Shown here one piece after another: positions 48,849-64,000 of a stretch of DNA of 64,000 nucleotides; the first letter of the stretch is position 1, and every line of letters begins with the position of its first letter. Below the pieces are notes generated by a model. The model saw only the letters and a list, made by a program, of their open reading frames with translations, searched no databases and was not told where the DNA came from. The translations under genes and the position numbers were made by a program. Source of the stretch: a virus; IMG/VR virus record IMGVR_UViG_3300032242_001694. One strand, given 5' to 3'.

Positions 48849-49266
48849 GTTTGCGAAACCGACCGATGATGACGCACCGCTTCCTGTACCACCGGTCGCT
48901 GTAGAAACTGTTGTTCCTCCTCCAAGATCACAGTCAAGTGAGTCGGTTAACTTTACGCAGAATTCAATCGACTCATCGATCTATAATCACCAACTTGACA
49001 AAGAAGACGAGCACTGGGTAAAAGCTTACTGGCGTCCCGTGATGGGTTGGCTATACATGTTGATCTGCTTTATGGACTTTATAGGGTTTCCAATCTTTGC
49101 AATGTTTTTACCAGTGATTTATAAGAGCGATGGGATGTCGGTTGCTTACATAGCGTGGCAGCCGATCACGCTTGCAAACGGCGGTCTAATTCATCTGGCA
49201 TTTGGTGCCATTCTAGGCGTAGCAGCTTATAGCCGCGGTCAAGAAAAGTTAGCAAAGATTAACTAA
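48841..49266 (+). CDS. Holin-like membrane protein (GTA 3TM holin type)
   Basis: WRPVMGWLYMLICFMDF, HLAFGAILGVAAYSRGQEK; hydrophobic segments. Confidence 0.6.
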   Translation: MAKFAKPTDDDAPLPVPPVAVETVVPPPRSQSSESVNFTQNSIDSSIYNHQLDKEDEHWVKAYWRPVMGWLYMLICFMDFIGFPIFAMFLPVIYKSDGMSVAYIAWQPITLANGGLIHLAFGAILGVAAYSRGQEKLAKIN

Positions 49267-51044
49267 TGGCCGACAACGATAAGCTTGATATTAACTTTAA
49301 AGACTTAGCTAGAAGTGCATCTCAGTATGTCTTCAGTTCTACTTTTCCGTCTCTGGAAAGAATGCTTAAGACTGTTCAAACAACTGGCGAAGAGAATAAG
49401 CAAGAAGTTGAAGACTTAAGCTCTACGATTAGTTCAGTTAATATACGGCTAAATGATATTAACGTTGGTCTTAGAAAACTAAATGATGCGATGTCAAAGT
49501 CGCTGGGTATTCTTGGAAAGATACTTAAGGCCCAAGATAGCTCTAGTGGAGCAGATAGCAATAATACACTTCCAGGAGGCGGTCTTAATAATATAAGCAA
49601 AGCGGCTGGTGCCACACTAGGCGCTGGCGCGATGATGTCTGTTATTGAGAATCAGCACAGCGCTCCAGGACCAGAAACTTCAGCGCAAGGCGGCGATCAA
49701 GGAGCCAAGCCATCTACACCAATCGCTGGCGGTTCTACTTCAAGTCTTAATACTCCAAATGCTACAAAAGCAGCGTCACCAACTGGATCAGCTCCATCTA
49801 CTCCAGCTCCTCAACCTGAGAAAAAAGATGCATCAGCTGCAGGAGGCGGTAAAACACTTCTGATAAAAGCTTCAACTATTATATTTGAAGCTGGTCAAAT
49901 TATGTTTACCAGTGGAAGCATTGCTGGAAGTAGCAGTGGTGGTACTGTACCAACTTCAGTATCTTCTAGTGGTGGAAGTAACAGTGGTGGAACAGGACCA
50001 ACTTCAGTATCTTCTAGTGGCGGAAGTAGAAGCAGTGGACCGTCTGCTTCATTGGGTGCTTCACCTGCAAATGCACCAATGAATATGCCAGCTGAAGAAA
50101 ACCAACAGCAACCACAGGGCGGTGCCAGTGGAGCTCCTGGAAGCTTTGAAAGCGCAGTAGCAGGTCAATCTGGAGGAATGACTACTCTTAAGACTAAAAG
50201 AGGAAAATCTTATCAAGTAGCATCTCAAGACGCTAAGAAGTTTCATGGCTTTGTCGATGAGCTAGAAAGATCTGGCTATCAGATTAATCAGATTGGTGGT
50301 TATCGCCAAAGCGCTATGTGGCATGGAAAGGGTATGGCAATCGACATCAACCCTGACCAGAACCCAATGCTTGAGAATAAAAATGGAAGAATCATCAATC
50401 GAATAACAGGCCAAGAAGCTAGCGAATTAAAAAATCCTAGATATCCATTTGGTTATGGAAAAGATAACTTTGGTTCTATCGATGTAAGTAATATGGCAAA
50501 GAAGCATGGTCTCGGATGGGGTGGCAACTGGAAGTCATCAACAGACACCATGCATTTCTCCTCTGGTCCTAACGAGATGACTGAACCAACGCCTCAAGCA
50601 ATTGCAGCTAGAGGTGGAGGTGGTGGCGAGCAACAACAGACCGCTGCGGCTTCTCCGGCCCCTGCAGCGACTCCGGTGTCAAAGCCCGAGGTTGCTTCGG
50701 CTAGTTCTTCAGGCGGTCCATCTGCTCCATTAGGAGCTTCGCCGGCAGATAAGAAACCACCGGCTGCTTCGATGCAAGTAGCAAGTATTCCTACTAAAGG
50801 TGCAGAGCTTAATAGCGAATCAACTTCAAGTGAAGTTGGAAGTATTACTCCACCTGCAAGAGCATCTATGAATAGTATTGGCGCAGGTGGCGGTCAGCAA
50901 AAAGAATCGGATGTTCCTCCAAATCCAAAAATAACAAATGCAAATAAAGCTGGTAATGTTGAACCAGATGATGCAGCTCAAAGATATGAATCGCTATTTG
51001 GAATGAAGCCCAAAGTACCAACAGGTTCAGGGGCTAGAGTGTAA
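49266..51044 (+). CDS. Tail-associated protein with M15-family Zn peptidase domain
   Basis: GGYR, HGKGMAIDINP, WGGNW..DTMHF; coiled-coil N-terminus; low-complexity linkers. Confidence 0.7.
   Translation: MADNDKLDINFKDLARSASQYVFSSTFPSLERMLKTVQTTGEENKQEVEDLSSTISSVNIRLNDINVGLRKLNDAMSKSLGILGKILKAQDSSSGADSNNTLPGGGLNNISKAAGATLGAGAMMSVIENQHSAPGPETSAQGGDQGAKPSTPIAGGSTSSLNTPNATKAASPTGSAPSTPAPQPEKKDASAAGGGKTLLIKASTIIFEAGQIMFTSGSIAGSSSGGTVPTSVSSSGGSNSGGTGPTSVSSSGGSRSSGPSASLGASPANAPMNMPAEENQQQPQGGASGAPGSFESAVAGQSGGMTTLKTKRGKSYQVASQDAKKFHGFVDELERSGYQINQIGGYRQSAMWHGKGMAIDINPDQNPMLENKNGRIINRITGQEASELKNPRYPFGYGKDNFGSIDVSNMAKKHGLGWGGNWKSSTDTMHFSSGPNEMTEPTPQAIAARGGGGGEQQQTAAASPAPAATPVSKPEVASASSSGGPSAPLGASPADKKPPAASMQVASIPTKGAELNSESTSSEVGSITPPARASMNSIGAGGGQQKESDVPPNPKITNANKAGNVEPDDAAQRYESLFGMKPKVPTGSGARV
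49925..50028 (+). repeat. 48-bp tandem duplication (SGGTxPTSVSSSGGS)
   Basis: Two near-identical copies of ccaacttcagtatcttctagtgg, 48 nt apart. Confidence 0.8.
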
Positions 51045-51046
51045 CA

Positions 51047-52837
51047 ATGGCTGAACCCAACTTAAGAGCACTAGCAAAGCAGAGCTGGGACGCAATATTC
51101 GCCCAAGCTTATCCAAAGCTAGGCGCAATGATTCGCTCCATCAATGAAGAGATGGAAAGAACTCTCGAAGACTCAAGGAGAGAGATTAAAAGTACAACTC
51201 TAGCACTTGAAGATATTGATCAGAAGCTAGTAAGTACAAAAAGTAATATCAGTAATTTAGTTGATTCACAAGATAAGATAAATTCATATCTTTCTAGAAT
51301 CGAGTGGAATCCTTCGACAACAAAAAGCGGAGGTGGTTTTGATCTTACTATGCCAGATCTTAGTAAGCTAAAAGATAAGAAGAATACTAAAGCTGAAGAG
51401 AAGAATAAAGGTAAAGGTCAAGAAGAAGTCAAAAAGAGTACAGCAGATAAGCTTAAGACTGGTACTTGGTCATTTGCAGGCAAGTTAGTCAATATAGCTT
51501 TTCTAGGCAGTTTGGCTTATGAAACATACATGTACATCTATAATCTAGACCCAAGAGATCCGGATTATGCTGAAAAAGCATCAGTTAAAATTTCACAGGC
51601 AGTTGCTCTAGTTGGATTCATTGAGTTTGCTGCTGCTATATCAGCTTGTATTGGTTCTGCGATCGCTCCAGGAGTTGGTACAATCATCGGAGCGCTCGGC
51701 GGTTTAGCTGCTGGATGGTTTTTTAAAGATGAAGTAGATGAGTTAACCGAGTACGTAGTCAAGAAGATATTCGAGTACAAGAAAAAGTTAGCAGGTGAAA
51801 GTTCAAGCGCTTCAGCAGTCGGTCCTTCCGGAGATATTTCTGGAGGAGCGCTCTCATCTATGTCTTCTACTGATAGTATCAGGTTTGTTGCAGATAAAAT
51901 CATCTTTAAGTCAAGTCAAAGAAGCCAACAATCCCAAAGTTCATCTACTAGTAGTTCTGGTGGAAGTGGAGAGATGACAGCGTCTAGGCAGCCTAGCATT
52001 GATACAACACCACCGGCCGGGTCTGGGTTTGGACAAAGCAGCGGGCAGGCTAGTAAGTCAAGTAGATCTTTGAGTGGTATGTCTTCAATGGGAAGTTCAT
52101 CAGGACCAACAAGTTCAGATCAAAGTGAAAACACGCCACAAGATGAATCTCAAGACGCAACAACAGCCCCTGCTACAGAGACAAAAGAAAAGCCAAAAAA
52201 TGTAGCTACTCAAGGAGCAGACGCTTCTAAAGTAGATCCAAATCTTTTATCTTCTTTCTATAAAGCTGCAGAAGAATTTGGACAACCGGTTACCATAACT
52301 TCTGGTTTTAGAAGTGACGAGAAGCAAGCTGAACTTTATGCTAGATGGATGGCCGGTGAACCTAACATATATATGCCCTCTAAGCCAGTTAAAGCTGCAA
52401 CTGTAACTATTAGAGGAAAAGCTTATAACGTTCCAGGCGGTGGTTCTGGAAGTAACCATTCTAAAGGTACGGCTATTGACTCTCCACAAGCAGAAGCGAT
52501 GGATAGAGCTGGCTTATTGAAGAAATATGGTTTAGTAAGACCGAACGCTGGAGATCCAGTGCATATTCAGCTTGCTAATGGTGGAGAAGCTACGGAAGAG
52601 ACGCAGCAGGCTGGTTCTCAAGTTTCTTCAAAACCAACTACTGGAGCAGCAGTCAATAAAGCATCAGTAGATAAAAAAGTTGAAACTGAAAAGCAGCAAC
52701 AGGCTGCTTCGCTTGAAGTTAATAACTTGGTGTCACAGAGTCCATCTTCTCAGACCCCAGACCAGCCACAAGAAACTTCTAGAAACAGTGAAGTTGGAGT
52801 CAATAATAGACTCGGCCGCCTGATAGCACAAGCATAA
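51047..52837 (+). CDS. Tape-measure-position protein with transmembrane segments and M15-family peptidase domain
   Basis: ITSGFRS..Q, SNHSKGTAID, DPVHIQ; hydrophobic glycine zipper PGVGTIIGALGGLAAGW. Confidence 0.7.
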   Translation: MAEPNLRALAKQSWDAIFAQAYPKLGAMIRSINEEMERTLEDSRREIKSTTLALEDIDQKLVSTKSNISNLVDSQDKINSYLSRIEWNPSTTKSGGGFDLTMPDLSKLKDKKNTKAEEKNKGKGQEEVKKSTADKLKTGTWSFAGKLVNIAFLGSLAYETYMYIYNLDPRDPDYAEKASVKISQAVALVGFIEFAAAISACIGSAIAPGVGTIIGALGGLAAGWFFKDEVDELTEYVVKKIFEYKKKLAGESSSASAVGPSGDISGGALSSMSSTDSIRFVADKIIFKSSQRSQQSQSSSTSSSGGSGEMTASRQPSIDTTPPAGSGFGQSSGQASKSSRSLSGMSSMGSSSGPTSSDQSENTPQDESQDATTAPATETKEKPKNVATQGADASKVDPNLLSSFYKAAEEFGQPVTITSGFRSDEKQAELYARWMAGEPNIYMPSKPVKAATVTIRGKAYNVPGGGSGSNHSKGTAIDSPQAEAMDRAGLLKKYGLVRPNAGDPVHIQLANGGEATEETQQAGSQVSSKPTTGAAVNKASVDKKVETEKQQQAASLEVNNLVSQSPSSQTPDQPQETSRNSEVGVNNRLGRLIAQA

Positions 52838-58312: not shown

Positions 58313-61300
58313 CTATATTAAATTGAATCCTGCTGCTGTAGCATAAACTTGTCCTGCTGTTATAGTAGTTCCCCAGTAAGTATTGGCAGCGGTACCCGAT
58401 GTGAATAATATCTGACCAGCTGAACCTGCGCTTCCATTTGCGATGATAACTCCATTAACTGCAAGATTCGCGGTAACTGTCAACTGCGAAGAATTAGCAA
58501 TGATGTTAGTTCCAACGTTTGCCGACGTAGTAACGTATAATGTAGCAGTATTAGTTTGATTAACGATATTTATAGCAATCGCATTAACTAAACTAGAATT
58601 TGCAGTAAAAGCAGTCCCAACGTTTGCCGACGTAGTAACGTATAGAGTTGTTGTATTAGTCTGACCTGTTATATTTATGGCCGCAGTATTAACTAGCGTT
58701 GCGTTAGCCGTAAACGTAGTGCCGACTGTGTGAGATGCTGCGTTGACTATACCTGTGTAAACTCCAGTTGTATTTGCAATCGTAACAGCATTAACATTTA
58801 GACCAATAGTATTTAAGTACGCATTAACTGTGTTGTTACCAACAAACAGAGTGGTAACGTTTGCGATAAGTCCTCCGGTTCCAGTACCTGTAGTTCCAGT
58901 GGTGTAAGAAACTGCATTTATCGAACCGCTGAATAGAGCGCCAGTAAGTAGTGCATAGTTGGCAAGATTTGTTGAGAGCTGGTTAGTGTTTACATATGAC
59001 TTACCATCAACATACGACGTAGCATTGCTGTAAGCGGTGGCTGCATTACTCGTTATCGCAGTGTTGACTGTACCAATTCTAGTGTCGGTGTATGTTGTAG
59101 CATTACTGTAAGCAGTAGCAGCATTGCTGGTTATTGCCGTGTTGACTGTACCAATTCTGGTGTCTGTATAAGTTGTAGCATTGCTATAAGCTGTTGCAGC
59201 ATTACTCGTTATCGCAGTGTTGACTGTACCAATTCTAGTGTCGGTGTATGTTGTAGCATTACTGTAAGCAGTTGCAGCATTGCTCGTGATAGCAGTATTA
59301 ACGGTGATGATTCTAGTGTCAACGTATGTCGTGGCATTACTGTAAGCTGTAGCAGCGTTACTCGTGATAGCGCTGTTAACTGTAGCAATTCTGGTATCAA
59401 CATAGGTAACAGCATTAGAATAAGCTGTCGCTGCATTGCTCGTGATAGCAGTATTAACTGTAGCGATCTTTGTATCAACGTATGAAGTAGCGTTACTGTA
59501 CGCAGTAGCCACATTTGCAGTCATTAGAGCAGTGTTGCTGTATAGAGAGAGGTTGCTTGATAGCTGGGCGTTTGAGACAACGTTTGCAGCTGAGACGCTT
59601 CCAACAAAGCTTGTATTGTTAGACGTTGCGTTGAAAAACGTAGAGTTTATAGTTGAGTATACAGTAGTGTTGCCAACATAGATTGTGTTTGCTTGGAAAT
59701 TAGCAATATGAAATGTTGTGTTTGTCTTGTCAATGTAAGGAGATGCATCCGGCTCTGGAAGATAGTTGTCAAAGACTTTAAAAGTACCATCGCTTGCATC
59801 TCTAAAGAAACCGGCGTGGTGGTAAGTACCGTCGTTATAGTTACCTGCAAAACCAAGATCTGGATTTGCCACGTCACTGTTGCTGTTAAGATAGATCATG
59901 TTATCTTTAACAGACAAGCTTTGAACGTTAAGAGTAACAAGGTTACCGCTAACTGTTAAGTTTCCTTGAATCGTTACATTACCGCTTACTGTTAAGTTAC
60001 GGCCGACTAACAAATCATTTATAGTATTTGCATTATTTGCTGAAACATTGCCGGTGAAAGAATTAATTCCGTTTGAAAGCAAAGCATAATTGGCAAGATT
60101 AGACGATAGCTGACTCGTATTAACAAATGATCTGCCATCAACGTATGAAGTTGCGTTAGAATAAGCAGTTGCTGCATTTCCCGTGATAGCCGTATTTACA
60201 GTGCTAATGCGCGTGTCGGTGTAACTAGCAGCGTTAGAATAAGCAGTTGCGGCGTTGCTCGTGATAGCGCTGTTAGCTGTAGCAATTCTAGTATCTGTGT
60301 ATGAAGTGGCATTGCTATAAGCAGTGGCTGCATTACTTGTTATAGCCGTGTTAACGGTGATGATTCTAGTATCAACGTATGTTGTAGCATTGCTATAAGC
60401 AGTAGCAGCATTAGAAGTTATAGCTGTATTAACAGTACCAATCTTTGTATCAGTGTAAGTTACAGAGTTACTGTATGCGGTAGCTGCATTAGAAGTTATA
60501 GCGGTATTAACGGTAATAATTCTAGTATCAACGTATGTTGTGGCATTACTGTATGCGGTAGCAGCGTTAGAAGTTATAGCCGTGTTAACAGTACCAATTC
60601 TAGTGTCAGTATATGTTGTAGCATTACTGTATGAAGTTGCAGCTTTGGTATCTGCGTATGAAGTAGCGTTGGAATAAGCAGTCGCCGCATTACTTGTTAT
60701 TGCGGTGTTAACTGTACCAATTTTTGTATCAACGTATGAAGTTGCATTACTATATGCCGTAGCAGCGTTGCTTGTTATAGCTGTATTGACCGTACCAATC
60801 TTAGTGTCTGTGTAAGAAGTAGCGTTGCTGTAAGCAGTAGCTGCAGCAGTATTTGCAAATAATGTAGCATTAGAATATGCATTGGCTGCTTTTATATCAG
60901 CGTAAGAAGTAGCGTTACTATATGCCGTAGCAGCATTACTTGTTATAGCAGTGTTAACAGTTCCGATCTTTGTGTCAACATATGAAACTGCGTTGCTGTA
61001 AGCAGTCGCTGCATTAGATGTTATAGCAGTGTTGACTGTACCAATCTTGGTATCAACATATGAAACTGCGTTGCTGTAAGCAGTCGCTGCATTAGATGTT
61101 ATAGCAGTGTTAACAGTTCCGATCTTTGTATCAGTGTAAGAAGTAGCATTTGAATATGCGGTAGCGGCATTAGATGTTATAGCAGTGTTGACTGTACCAA
61201 TCTTGGTATCAACATAAGAAGTAGCATTTGAGTAAGCATTAGAAGCTTTATCGTCAGCATATGTTTTTAAAGCATAGCTAGAAGCAGCAGTTCCTCCTAG

Positions 61301-63328
61301 ATTTGTAGAATCATTAGCAGTGAGCGTTGCAACATTAGATGACAAGCCAGCTGTAGTCTGGTAATTAGACAAGTTACCAGACAACTGGGCATTAGAGACT
61401 ACATTAGCAGCGGAAACACTTCCAACGAAAGAAGTGTTATTAGCAGTCAGTGTAGCTACATTGCTAGACAGTCCGGCTGTAGTTTGGTAGCTTGACAAGT
61501 TACCTGTTAGCTGAGCATTAGAAACAACATTAGTAGCTGAAACACTTCCAACAAAAGAAGTGTTGTTAGCAGTGAGCGTTGCAACATTGCTTGATAGTCC
61601 AGCCGTGGTTTGGTAGTTACTAAGGTTACCAGATAACTGGGCATTAGATACTACATTAGCAGCGGACACCGATCCAACAAAGCTTGTATTATTGGAAGTT
61701 AAAGTAGCTACATTAGAAGATAATCCAGCAGTAGTCTGGTAGTTACTAAGGTTGCTAGACAGCTGAGCATTTGACACAACATTAGCTGCAGAAACTGAAC
61801 CAACAAAAGAAGTGTTGTTAGCAGTGAGCGTTGCAACATTAGATAACAAGCCAGCTGTAGTCTGGTAATTAGACAAGTTACCAGACAGCTGTGCATTAGA
61901 CACAACGTTAGACGCATCAATCGATCCAACAAATGAAGTATTGTTGGATGTTGCATTGAAAAAAGTGGTGTTTATAGTCGAGTAAACTGTAGTATTGCCA
62001 ATATAGATCGTGTTGGCTTGGAAATTAGCGATATGGAATGTAGTGTTTGTCTGATCAATATACTGAGACGCATCAGGCTCTGGCAGATAGTTGTCGAAAA
62101 CTTTCCAAGTTCCAGAAGCGTGATCTCTAAAGAACCCAGCATGGTGGTAAGTGCCATCATTATAGTTAGCTGCAAAACCAAGATCGGGATTTGAAAATGT
62201 AGAATTAGAATTCAGATAAATCATGTTATCTGAGATTGATAGATTATTTGCCCCAATAACTTCTACGTTGCCGGTGATAATAAGGCTCTTCACTGAAACG
62301 TTGCCGGTGAACGTGGCAGTTGTTGCTGTTACAGACGTTGCATTTACTGTTCCGCTGTAGTTTGGAAGATAAGATGCGATGTTTGCATTTAATCCAGCAG
62401 TAGTCTGGTAATTAGATAAGTTAGAAGAAAGCTGACTTGTGTTTACGTATGACTTGCCATCGACGTATGAAGTTGCATTGCTGTAGGCCGTGGCGGCATT
62501 TGAAGTTATAGCGGTGTTAACGGTAACTATTCTACCGTCGGTGTAGGCAGCTGCATTGCTATAAGCGGTAGCAGCGTTAGAAGTTATAGCCGTGTTGACT
62601 GTACCAATTCTAGTATCGGTGTATGCAGTAGCGTTGCTGTAAGCAGTAGCTGCATTAGATGTTATAGCGCCATTGACTGTGCTGATCTTAATATCAACGT
62701 ATGAAGTTGCATTGCTATACGCGGTTGCAGCATTACTGGTTATAGCAGTGTTGACTGTACCAATTCTAGTATCTGTATAAGCAGTAGCGTTGGAATATGC
62801 CGTAGCAACATTTCCAGTCATCAATGTCGTATTGCTGTACAGAGAAAGATTACTAGAGAGCTGAGCATTAGAAACGACATTAGCAGCCGAAACGCTCCCG
62901 ACAAACAGGGCGTTATTGGCTCTTCCGGTGTATGCCGTTGAGTTGATTGTAGCGTTGACGGTGCTATTGCCGTATGTTACCGTGTTGGTAAACGTATGGG
63001 TATTTGTCCAAGTGTATCTCGCAGCCGAGTTAACGCTGCCGCCACCGCCGCCACTTACCGCAAGCCAAGAACCATTTGCGTTTAAGAAATAACTGTCAGC
63101 TGCCTGTTGGTCTGCGGTTGGAGCTGCAAATGAATATGTTACCGTAGAATTTGCAAGAGACAGTGAAGTTGAATTAATCGTCGCATTGACGGTTGAGTTG
63201 CCAGTAAATATCGTATTGCTTAAGCCAATCGTAGGAGTATTAGATGTGGTTACAGTTTCTCCGGCATCAGTGTTTCCACTTGCCTGCAAAACCATATTAT
63301 TGTCGTCTAAGAAAAGAATACCCTGCAT
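58313..63328 (-). CDS. Giant repetitive fibre protein (1671 aa)
   Basis: 26-aa and 42-aa tandem repeats, duplicated globular domain, fibre modules shared with the 18-22 kb genes. Confidence 0.8.
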   Translation of the reverse strand: MQGILFLDDNNMVLQASGNTDAGETVTTSNTPTIGLSNTIFTGNSTVNATINSTSLSLANSTVTYSFAAPTADQQAADSYFLNANGSWLAVSGGGGGSVNSAARYTWTNTHTFTNTVTYGNSTVNATINSTAYTGRANNALFVGSVSAANVVSNAQLSSNLSLYSNTTLMTGNVATAYSNATAYTDTRIGTVNTAITSNAATAYSNATSYVDIKISTVNGAITSNAATAYSNATAYTDTRIGTVNTAITSNAATAYSNAAAYTDGRIVTVNTAITSNAATAYSNATSYVDGKSYVNTSQLSSNLSNYQTTAGLNANIASYLPNYSGTVNATSVTATTATFTGNVSVKSLIITGNVEVIGANNLSISDNMIYLNSNSTFSNPDLGFAANYNDGTYHHAGFFRDHASGTWKVFDNYLPEPDASQYIDQTNTTFHIANFQANTIYIGNTTVYSTINTTFFNATSNNTSFVGSIDASNVVSNAQLSGNLSNYQTTAGLLSNVATLTANNTSFVGSVSAANVVSNAQLSSNLSNYQTTAGLSSNVATLTSNNTSFVGSVSAANVVSNAQLSGNLSNYQTTAGLSSNVATLTANNTSFVGSVSATNVVSNAQLTGNLSSYQTTAGLSSNVATLTANNTSFVGSVSAANVVSNAQLSGNLSNYQTTAGLSSNVATLTANDSTNLGGTAASSYALKTYADDKASNAYSNATSYVDTKIGTVNTAITSNAATAYSNATSYTDTKIGTVNTAITSNAATAYSNAVSYVDTKIGTVNTAITSNAATAYSNAVSYVDTKIGTVNTAITSNAATAYSNATSYADIKAANAYSNATLFANTAAATAYSNATSYTDTKIGTVNTAITSNAATAYSNATSYVDTKIGTVNTAITSNAATAYSNATSYADTKAATSYSNATTYTDTRIGTVNTAITSNAATAYSNATTYVDTRIITVNTAITSNAATAYSNSVTYTDTKIGTVNTAITSNAATAYSNATTYVDTRIITVNTAITSNAATAYSNATSYTDTRIATANSAITSNAATAYSNAASYTDTRISTVNTAITGNAATAYSNATSYVDGRSFVNTSQLSSNLANYALLSNGINSFTGNVSANNANTINDLLVGRNLTVSGNVTIQGNLTVSGNLVTLNVQSLSVKDNMIYLNSNSDVANPDLGFAGNYNDGTYHHAGFFRDASDGTFKVFDNYLPEPDASPYIDKTNTTFHIANFQANTIYVGNTTVYSTINSTFFNATSNNTSFVGSVSAANVVSNAQLSSNLSLYSNTALMTANVATAYSNATSYVDTKIATVNTAITSNAATAYSNAVTYVDTRIATVNSAITSNAATAYSNATTYVDTRIITVNTAITSNAATAYSNATTYTDTRIGTVNTAITSNAATAYSNATTYTDTRIGTVNTAITSNAATAYSNATTYTDTRIGTVNTAITSNAATAYSNATSYVDGKSYVNTNQLSTNLANYALLTGALFSGSINAVSYTTGTTGTGTGGLIANVTTLFVGNNTVNAYLNTIGLNVNAVTIANTTGVYTGIVNAASHTVGTTFTANATLVNTAAINITGQTNTTTLYVTTSANVGTAFTANSSLVNAIAINIVNQTNTATLYVTTSANVGTNIIANSSQLTVTANLAVNGVIIANGSAGSAGQILFTSGTAANTYWGTTITAGQVYATAAGFNLI
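59010..62810 (-). repeat. Three arrays of 78-bp/26-aa repeats, one array of 126-bp/42-aa repeats, and a duplicated domain of roughly 110 aa
   Basis: TAYSNATxYxDTxIxTVNTAITSNAA; NLSNYQTTAGLSSNVATLTANNTSFVGSVSAANVVSNAQLSG; two copies of DNMIYLNSNS..YHHAGFFRD..FDNYLPEPDAS; boundaries approximate. Confidence 0.9.
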
Positions 63329-63346: not shown

Positions 63347-63423
63347 TGGCGACCCCTGCACGACTCGAACGTGCGGCCTACAGATTAGAAGTCTGTTGCT
63401 CTATCCAGCTGAGCTAAGGGGCC
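63347..63423 (-). tRNA. tRNA-Arg(TCT)
   Basis: GGCCCCT/AGGGGTC, GCTC/GAGC, ACAGA-CTTCTAA-TCTGT, GCACG-TTCGAGT-CGTGC, GCCA. Confidence 0.95.
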
Positions 63424-63483: not shown

Positions 63484-63521
63484 GTGGGGAGATTCTGTTT
63501 CTAAGCTCTCCCCGAGCTCAT
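63484..63521 (-). repeat. 38-bp direct repeat, copy downstream of the small ORF
   Basis: 37/38 identical to 63762-63799. Confidence 0.95.
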
Positions 63522-63526
63522 ATTAC

Positions 63527-63727
63527 TTATTTCTTTTCGGCAAATGCCTTGATGGCTTCAGCCAAAGCAAAGATCTCTTCTTCATCTGGATATGCGGGAT
63601 ACACTCCAGCGAACCCATCTTCTTTTCTAATTACTGCTTCATTGAATTTAGCGTGGTAGCCATTCTGCAGTTGCTCGCGCGCAGCCATGTAATATTGAAA
63701 GCGCATTTCGTAAGGTGTAGCTGTCAT
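63527..63727 (-). CDS. Hypothetical 66-aa protein
   Basis: AAAGGA RBS after a CA-rich leader; MTATPYEMRF...YPDEEEIFALAEAIKAFAEKK. Confidence 0.75.
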   Translation of the reverse strand: MTATPYEMRFQYYMAAREQLQNGYHAKFNEAVIRKEDGFAGVYPAYPDEEEIFALAEAIKAFAEKK

Positions 63728-63761
63728 AGTTAGTTCCTTTCTGTGTGTGTTGTGTGTAGTA

Positions 63762-63799
63762 GTGGGGAGATTCTGTTTCCAAGCTCTCCCCGAGCTCAT
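63762..63799 (-). repeat. 38-bp direct repeat, copy at the tmRNA coding-piece 3' end
   Basis: ATGAGCTCGGGGAGAGCTTGGAAACAGAATCTCCCCAC. Confidence 0.95.
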
Positions 63800-64000
63800 T
63801 CTTAGGCAGCTAGTGCATAAGAGATAGGTGCATTATCGTTTGCATCTGTAACGTTTGCCATGATCTCAGTAGTACCTTTATCACACCTGTCGATCCTATT
63901 TCGCCCCCATCAAAGATACACGCGTTTGGATTCGAACCATGTTCTAGTCTTCTCGATCTGCGCTTCCCACAGTGCTGACCCGTGTATCCGTGGTGGAGGC
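63762..64000 (-). ncRNA. ssrA: Circularly permuted (two-piece) tmRNA; acceptor piece truncated by the window edge
   Basis: GCCTCCACCA (64000-63991), then an 82-nt intervening segment, then GGGGGCGAAATAGGATCGAC (from 63908); G3.U70 and A73 alanine identity; tag frame 63843-63802 ANDNAPISYALAA*. Confidence 0.92.

Follow-up and report, generated by a model that had tools for sequence, protein, structure and literature searches.

A probable phage-encoded two-piece tmRNA gene of alphaproteobacterial type, without a recognizable first pseudoknot, in a T4-like myovirus

Nearly all tmRNAs keep pk1, the first pseudoknot. The two-piece form was reportedly described for Caulobacter-type alphaproteobacteria by Keiler et al. 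in 2000. To our knowledge, tmRNA borne by phages is mechanistically unexplored, and we know of no demonstration that a lytic phage gains from a rescue RNA of its own working on host SmpB. Two-piece ssrA genes of the alphaproteobacterial type (alpha-type) have been published for the OM43 phage Melnitz, whose host is a gammaproteobacterial OM43 strain, and for pelagimyophages, with 53 two-piece calls among 18,146 phage genomes (PMC9004378), and the tmRNA database holds 79 unique sequences from phages (PMC11915505). In E. coli tmRNA, 12 nt separate pk1 from the resume codon, and the frame is set by A86, at position −4 (PMC2481249). Tagging by the wild-type E. coli RNA needs pk1 (Nameki 2000), yet tagging is not abolished when a hairpin takes the place of the pseudoknot, or even when the pseudoknot is deleted (Tanner et al. 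2006; Wower et al. 2009); all three studies are given here as cited in PMC3968760.

We analysed a stretch of viral DNA of 64,000 nucleotides (IMG/VR record IMGVR_UViG_3300032242_001694), referred to throughout as the window. Two-thirds of a circularly permuted alpha-type tmRNA gene, counted from its 3′ end, are present on the minus strand at the end of the window (64000-63761), the remaining part lying beyond it. The Rfam covariance model RF01849 (alpha_tmRNA) scored 61.8 bits (gathering score 50, E 1.5e-14) over model positions 110-355, flagged as 5′-cut at the window edge, and RF04321 (tmRNA_permuted) scored 57.5 bits (gathering score 47); the window copy passes both gathering thresholds despite its off-window 5′ end. 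ARAGORN made no tmRNA call at 64000-63761 because the gene is cut by the window end, with the T-arm outside; in relatives, it calls permuted tmRNAs with identical or near-identical tags. Of two checks proposed by a first-pass annotation of the same DNA, the Rfam model recognized the window copy, and ARAGORN found the complete gene in relatives and was silent on the window copy. That annotation had proposed a phage-encoded permuted alpha-type tmRNA, an identification that holds on the RF01849 score, the T4-type gene context and the complete genes in relatives; the novelty it attached to the find was overstated, as phage two-piece alpha-type tmRNAs were already in print (PMC9004378). Judging from sequence, we put at about 85% the probability that the locus is a working phage-encoded two-piece (circularly permuted) tmRNA gene of alphaproteobacterial type. 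Relatives supply the predicted T-arm, helix-2 partner strands and promoter of the window copy, since these would be located past base 64000. The parts of the gene are as follows.

Past base 64000, minus strand: rest of the acceptor piece (T-arm, helix-2 3′ strands, promoter), outside the window
63991..64000, minus strand: 3′ end of the acceptor piece, with GCCUCC (64000-63995), discriminator A (63994) and CCA (63993-63991), from the sequence and the Rfam alignment
63909..63990, minus strand: intervening segment of 82 nt, removed in the predicted maturation, from its closing stem, fold and covariation in relatives
63988-63981 with 63922-63915, minus strand: closing stem of the intervening segment, GAUACACG with CGUGUAUC, from pairing
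63914-63909, minus strand: UUUGAU leader just before G1, from the sequence
63889..63908, minus strand: mature 5′ end of the coding piece, GGGGGCG plus the D-loop analogue AAAUAGGAUCGAC (tRNA-like domain, SmpB-binding region), matching the Rfam consensus base for base
63856..63888, minus strand: helix-2 5′ strands P2a-P2d, with predicted partners in the off-window acceptor piece, from co-folds and covariation in relatives
63844..63855, minus strand: single-stranded 12-nt linker AACGUUACAGAU from helix 2 to the resume codon, without pk1, from co-folds and a stem scan
63802..63843, minus strand: tag reading frame, with resume codon GCA (63843-63841), peptide ANDNAPISYALAA and stop UAA (63804-63802), from the sequence and from ARAGORN in relatives
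63761..63801, minus strand: 3′-terminal H-type pseudoknot of the coding piece, from covariation in 35 distinct copies
63797-63793 with 63785-63781, minus strand: pseudoknot stem S1, GAGC(U) with (A)GCUU, from pairing
63791-63786 with 63769-63764, minus strand: pseudoknot stem S2, GGGGAG with CUCCCC, from pairing

The order of these parts reveals the permutation directly: as the first-pass annotation had noticed, the CCA end (63993-63991) is encoded before G1 (63908), with the 82-nt segment between them. Six of the seven acceptor-stem pairs and the A-CCA are visible in the window, including the G3.U wobble that it had also singled out (G 63906 with U 63996), while the seventh C is off-window. 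The acceptor 3′ strand reads CGCCUCCACCA in 18 of 18 relatives, where the 7 bp stem, with its U.G at position 3, is invariant. The tag frame reported downstream of the 5′ end is likewise present, with the peptide encoded at 63843-63805; it has an Ala resume codon exactly 65 nt after G1, an A at −4, a hydrophobic ..LAA end and a stop codon, and ARAGORN called the identical tag in two relatives (L121 and L122). The window precursor segment folds with a z of −4.1. Within the intervening segment there is also a T-loop-like GGUUCGAAUCC motif, and the 33 nt of the helix-2 5′ strands are purine-rich.

The relatives used here are viral contigs retrieved from IMG/VR by scans with the conserved 5′ end and tag region. 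Their complete tmRNA genes, in which the T-arm is whole and helix 2 is paired, score 106-131 bits with RF01849/RF04321 (110-112 bits for L121 and L122). The first-pass annotation would have fallen had a T-arm and a strand pairing with the coding piece been lacking; both are present in these relatives. Across 18 distinct full precursors, 97.8% of the positions in the proposed helices were paired, 14 pairs had compensatory changes and none of 500 shuffles reached the observed values. The T-arm was 100% paired with two covarying pairs, the distal helix-2 elements P2c and P2d were 98.6% and 89% paired, respectively, with covariation, and the closing stem of the intervening segment was 97.9% paired, with compensatory changes at seven of its eight pairs. 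P2a and P2b were judged by per-sequence co-folds and not by column counts, as indels shift the register between subgroups. The tags differ among relatives yet keep the pattern ANDN...(L/V)AA.

Individual relatives resemble the window in different places. The 5′ end with the D-loop analogue (63889..63908) is 100% identical in L202, L208 and L188. In L202, which has a full acceptor piece, the helix-2 5′ strands (63856..63888) are also 100% identical and the linker, tag and tail 85-92% identical, while the intervening segment is only 52% identical; in L208 and L188, the pattern is reversed, with 91% identity in the intervening segment and 52% in the helix-2 strands. From these opposite patterns we conclude that the tmRNA gene is a mosaic, in whose aligned copies the intervening segment behaves as a module swapped between invariant tRNA-like ends. 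A unique 41-nt stretch of this segment had no exact match in IMG/VR or metagenome contigs, and searches of GenBank phage DNA with the window matched the tRNA-Arg alone. For L208 and L188, ARAGORN reports only a tRNA-Arg, though the whole tmRNA gene, with acceptor piece and tag frame, aligns with the window and L202. Some short-form phage tmRNAs (defined below) are missed by this standard detector.

The spacing between G1 and the resume codon is bimodal among the ARAGORN-called permuted tmRNAs of the fetched loci: 58-66 nt in a clade that includes all of the window's nearest relatives (the short form) versus the typical 80-87 nt (the long form). In Rfam alignments, a gap of 18-24 nt falls where the consensus and a typical copy, L010, have the pk1 stem, and in the window the resume codon follows helix 2 after only 12 nt (63855-63844), with no pk1 among them. 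We co-folded the acceptor-piece 5′ arm of 14 short forms, each with its own coding piece. Most showed intermolecular pairing through GAGAYC and a conserved AGCA, with 10-12 unpaired nt before the resume codon, versus 31-60 nt in the long forms for which helix 2 was recovered, most of which (including Melnitz) have a 5-6 bp hairpin that varies in sequence. An exhaustive stem scan and RNAalifold found no conserved stem involving the linker, and a hidden pk1 or other helix at this point was rejected. The 65 nt spacing and missing canonical pk1, both listed as oddities on first pass, are thus real and common to the whole viral clade. A(−4) and G(−3) are kept (CAGAU/GCA in the window, UAGAU/GCA in most relatives) and match E. 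coli A86 and G87. Because pk1 of E. coli tmRNA can be replaced or deleted, it is mechanistically plausible that the end of helix 2 stands in for it, as a structured anchor upstream of the frame-setting A(−4). By the same analogy, pk1 loss could impair function, since the wild-type E. coli RNA needs pk1 for tagging.

Downstream of the tag frame, the RNA forms an H-type pseudoknot and not a simple hairpin, and both stems covary. Among 35 distinct copies, S2 was 94% paired with compensatory changes at all six of its pairs, S1 had three covarying pairs, and the observed score was reached by none of 500 shuffles. The loop is a conserved GGAAACAGAAU with an invariant AACAGAA, and the element is common to long-form copies and the Rfam alpha consensus. 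Three further features follow the gene.

63527..63727, minus strand: 66-aa ORF (ORF66) directly 3′ of the tmRNA, with a CA-rich spacer in between and a ribosome-binding site before it
63484..63521, minus strand: repeat of the 3′ pseudoknot element just past the ORF66 stop codon, 37 of 38 positions identical, then a U-rich run
63347..63423, minus strand: tRNA-Arg(TCT), found by ARAGORN and Rfam

ORF66 is probably co-transcribed with the tmRNA precursor. Homologues of 66-75 aa occupy the same place in seven relatives (L107:390-596, L013:3818-4024, L092:4287-4493, L055:5371-5571, L122:8723-8947, L121:3786-4007 and L108:11614-11835), with shared residues that include R9, A16, Y24 and F62. Neither Pfam nor PHROG gave a match for the family, and viral members make up 97-100% of its nearest atlas clusters; we regard it as a conserved family of small phage proteins. 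A gp33-type late-transcription coactivator was considered for ORF66 and rejected, with no BLASTP match to Melnitz gp33 and an hhalign probability of 0.2%. The two pseudoknot copies form a 38-nt direct repeat (63484-63521 and 63762-63799; 97% identical, 278 nt apart) that brackets the ORF66 cassette. Most of the tmRNA 3′ pseudoknot, as far as S2 and the loop, is contained in the repeat, and a U-rich run comes after the downstream copy but not after the other. The duplication is missing from every relative that has an ORF66 homologue; an apparent second copy in L122 proved to be a chance AACAGAA inside a coding region. The tRNA-Arg(TCT) is the usual downstream neighbour of the tmRNA (L104, L025, L040, L055, L202, L208 and L188), and in L104, L025 and L040 it follows directly.

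On the other side of the gene, relatives point to a promoter. The box TATAAATA occurs at a fixed distance, about 72-82 nt upstream of the CCA end, in 20 of 21 short-form and 50 of 65 long-form viral copies, and in L202, L064 and Melnitz (L124:1500-1545) it lies 17 nt after TTGAC(A/T). This would be a promoter of sigma-70 type with a −10 box identical to the T4 late consensus, such that early and late transcription are both possible. A T4 promoter used only late was rejected: the box also stands 17 nt after TTGAC(A), and is thus no proof of late expression.

We investigated how far the short form extends with a single gapped pattern that fits the short form only and demands an exact 5′ motif. 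It matched at least 120 viral contigs in IMG/VR and, in 185,579 species-representative genomes of bacteria and archaea, just one contig. The latter, NYWG01000240.1 (L125; 6,096 bp), is binned in a Verrucomicrobiales MAG, and its short-form tmRNA adjoins genes for a gp59-type helicase loader, a phage exonuclease and an endolysin; given these phage genes, it is almost certainly phage DNA that was assigned to a bacterial MAG by mis-binning. As far as tested with this one exact pattern, the short form appears to be found almost only in viruses. Our literature search found no paper on pk1 loss in phage alpha-type tmRNAs. We lean, by a little over even odds, towards a near-virus-only lineage that naturally does without pk1: an intermolecular extension of helix 2, ending 10-12 nt before the resume codon, would replace pk1 structurally, the RNA would work with host SmpB, and the intervening segment, the small-ORF cassette and the 3′ pseudoknot would be exchangeable phage modules. 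If true, this would be a natural minimal tmRNA.

The window codes for a T4-type portal, tail tube, sheath, large terminase, connector proteins of the gp15, gp14 and gp13 types, baseplate wedge and hub proteins, and a gp32 single-strand-binding protein (phrog_224, E 6e-116); by this gene content it is a T4-like myovirus. Its portal is less than 60% identical to that of any isolated phage, and its gp32 shares about 56% identity with the gp32 proteins of marine cyanomyophages. Where a short-form tmRNA occurs in contigs of 150-167 kb (91-99% complete), their portals are 59-69% identical to that of the window, compared with 51% for Melnitz. Elsewhere in the window, a 1,671-aa protein is encoded at 58313-63328 (minus strand), with a weak match to the Laminin_G_2 domain (E 6.6e-05) and none to PHROG. 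Next come four ORFs of 276-330 aa, of which three lack a PHROG match and one has a weak minor-tail-protein match; together with the 1,671-aa protein they are probably a tail-fibre or host-recognition module, placed between the tmRNA/tRNA-Arg and a tRNA-Met/gp32 region. Two adjacent proteins of ~590 aa (49266-51044 and 51047-52837, plus strand), each with a weak C-terminal endolysin-like match (phrog_2649), are possibly tandem paralogues.

SmpB (PF01668) was absent from five related phage records, namely Melnitz and four from IMG/VR, two of them at least 91% complete, in a search that was positive in 10 of 14 control genomes. Because no smpB was found in these records, the RNA is expected to rely on host SmpB; it would have to use host AlaRS and EF-Tu as well, its fit with the host SmpB and AlaRS being assumed here. 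Which host this might be is a separate matter. The first-pass suggestion that the RNA is matched to an alphaproteobacterial host finds no support as stated: Melnitz joins an alpha-type ssrA to a gammaproteobacterial OM43 host (PMC9004378), and neither the G+C content of the window (43%) nor tRNA similarity is informative on this point. We take 'alpha-type' to describe the RNA, not the host.

A working gene would operate as follows. A promoter shortly beyond the window end, of the kind seen in relatives (TTGAC(A)-N17-TATAAATA), would drive the transcription of one precursor, which would fold such that the closing stem of the 82-nt intervening segment extends the acceptor stem. Enzymes of tRNA processing would cut after the CCA and before G1, leaving an acceptor piece and a coding piece joined by the acceptor stem and the long helix 2. 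Host AlaRS would charge the RNA via G3.U70 and A73, and host SmpB and EF-Tu would bring it to stalled ribosomes, where translation would resume at the GCA at 63843 and add ANDNAPISYALAA, whose YALAA end is predicted to act as a ClpXP/ClpA-type degron. The benefit could be that ribosomes are kept free during the destruction of host mRNA and the mass production of phage structural proteins. Processing, charging, tagging, timing and benefit are all read from sequence. An effect on ribosome rescue or ClpXP tagging during infection, as envisaged on first pass, is plausible.

Several other explanations bear on this reading. The RNA might mainly titrate host SmpB or displace host tmRNA, and so damp host trans-translation. 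There is a precedent in phage DS6A, whose tmRNA is reduced to little beyond the tRNA-like domain, a similar molecule being a strong inhibitor of tmRNA (PMC4131195, PMC11915505), and without an SmpB in the five related records the RNA must compete for the host protein. Unlike the DS6A molecule, however, the window copy has a complete and conserved tag frame, the resume-codon context and a canonical degron end, all needless in a pure decoy, and we consider such a role unlikely. We think it a little less likely still that pk1 loss disabled the gene and that it persists only through recent acquisition as a decaying relic. About 20 nt are indeed missing relative to typical alpha-type copies, and the native E. 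coli RNA needs pk1 for tagging (PMC3968760); but the short form is spread over at least 120 viral contigs, with portals diverged to 59-69% identity, and all helices covary. In addition, G3.U, A(−4), the tRNA-like domain and the LAA/VAA tag end have been retained despite variation at the other tag positions. Such a pattern is one of purifying selection and not of decay.

Two further readings have very little to recommend them. Since integration at ssrA is common and fragments of this gene are found in temperate phages (PMC4383910, PMC9004378), the locus might be a bacterial ssrA or attachment-site fragment at a prophage-host junction. Against this, T4-type virion and replication genes adjoin on the one visible side and no integrase was seen in the window; relatives carry the whole gene inside T4-like contigs of 150-167 kb, bacterial genomes essentially lack the short form (by one exact gapped pattern), and both gene ends are represented, not a 3′ fragment alone. 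It is just as improbable that the locus is an ordinary small protein gene translated from an upstream AUG as MANVTDANDNAPISYALAA. The in-frame AUG behind this idea, reported on first pass, does exist (63861-63859, six codons upstream of the resume codon), but as a start codon it fares poorly: no Shine-Dalgarno sequence precedes it, it is AUA in L064 (the closest relative by overall coding-piece similarity) and missing in most others, and it falls within the helix-2 stretch GAUCAU-G-GCA, in surroundings that match a structured RNA family (E 1.5e-14). The AUG is regarded as an accident, and a working two-piece tmRNA gene remains our preferred reading of the locus.

A widespread, almost entirely viral clade without pk1 amounts to a natural experiment on what pk1 is for. 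It offers compact two-piece RNAs in which the role of pk1 could be tested, given that tagging in E. coli needs pk1, yet a hairpin can replace it. Short or end-cut phage tmRNAs are also easily missed, as ARAGORN missed the window copy and those of L208 and L188.

Compared with known systems, the closest is that of Melnitz and the pelagimyophages, which like the window combine an aquatic T4-like myophage with an alpha-type permuted tmRNA and an ANDN...ALAA tag. Melnitz is a lytic myophage that shares the TTGACA-N17-TATAAATA promoter with the window's relatives, has no smpB, like those relatives that were searched, and has a tRNA-Arg(TCT), as the window does, elsewhere or nearby. Unlike the window, with 65 nt from G1 to the resume codon and no pk1, Melnitz keeps pk1, with 82 nt and a UUGAC/GUCAA hairpin, and its intervening segment is 142 nt long versus 82 nt. 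Downstream of its tmRNA come a glutamine riboswitch (RF01739, 52.8 bits) and a gene for a gp33-type coactivator, whereas the window has the unrelated 66-aa ORF and no such riboswitch at the gathering score or at E<=1. Bacterial alpha-type two-piece tmRNAs (RF01849) have the same order of acceptor piece, intervening segment and coding piece, and share with the window's clade the GGGGGCGAAAUAGGAUCGAC 5′ end, a GGCRGUA-type T-loop (seen in relatives), helix 2 between the two pieces and an ANDN-type tag; they also have the 3′ pseudoknot of the window, with its ..GGMAACAGAA loop. The RF01849 consensus retains a pk1 segment between helix 2 and the resume codon, which the virus-encoded window copy lacks. 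In that respect the nearest counterparts are engineered E. coli tmRNAs with pk1 turned into a hairpin or deleted, which, as cited in PMC3968760, likewise place a stable helix ~10-12 nt upstream of the resume codon; those are one-piece laboratory constructs, whereas the window RNA would be natural and two-piece, its helix formed between the 5′ end of the acceptor piece and the coding piece. The core identification thus adds one member to a published class, and it is the natural architecture without pk1, found almost only in viruses, that is of modest interest.
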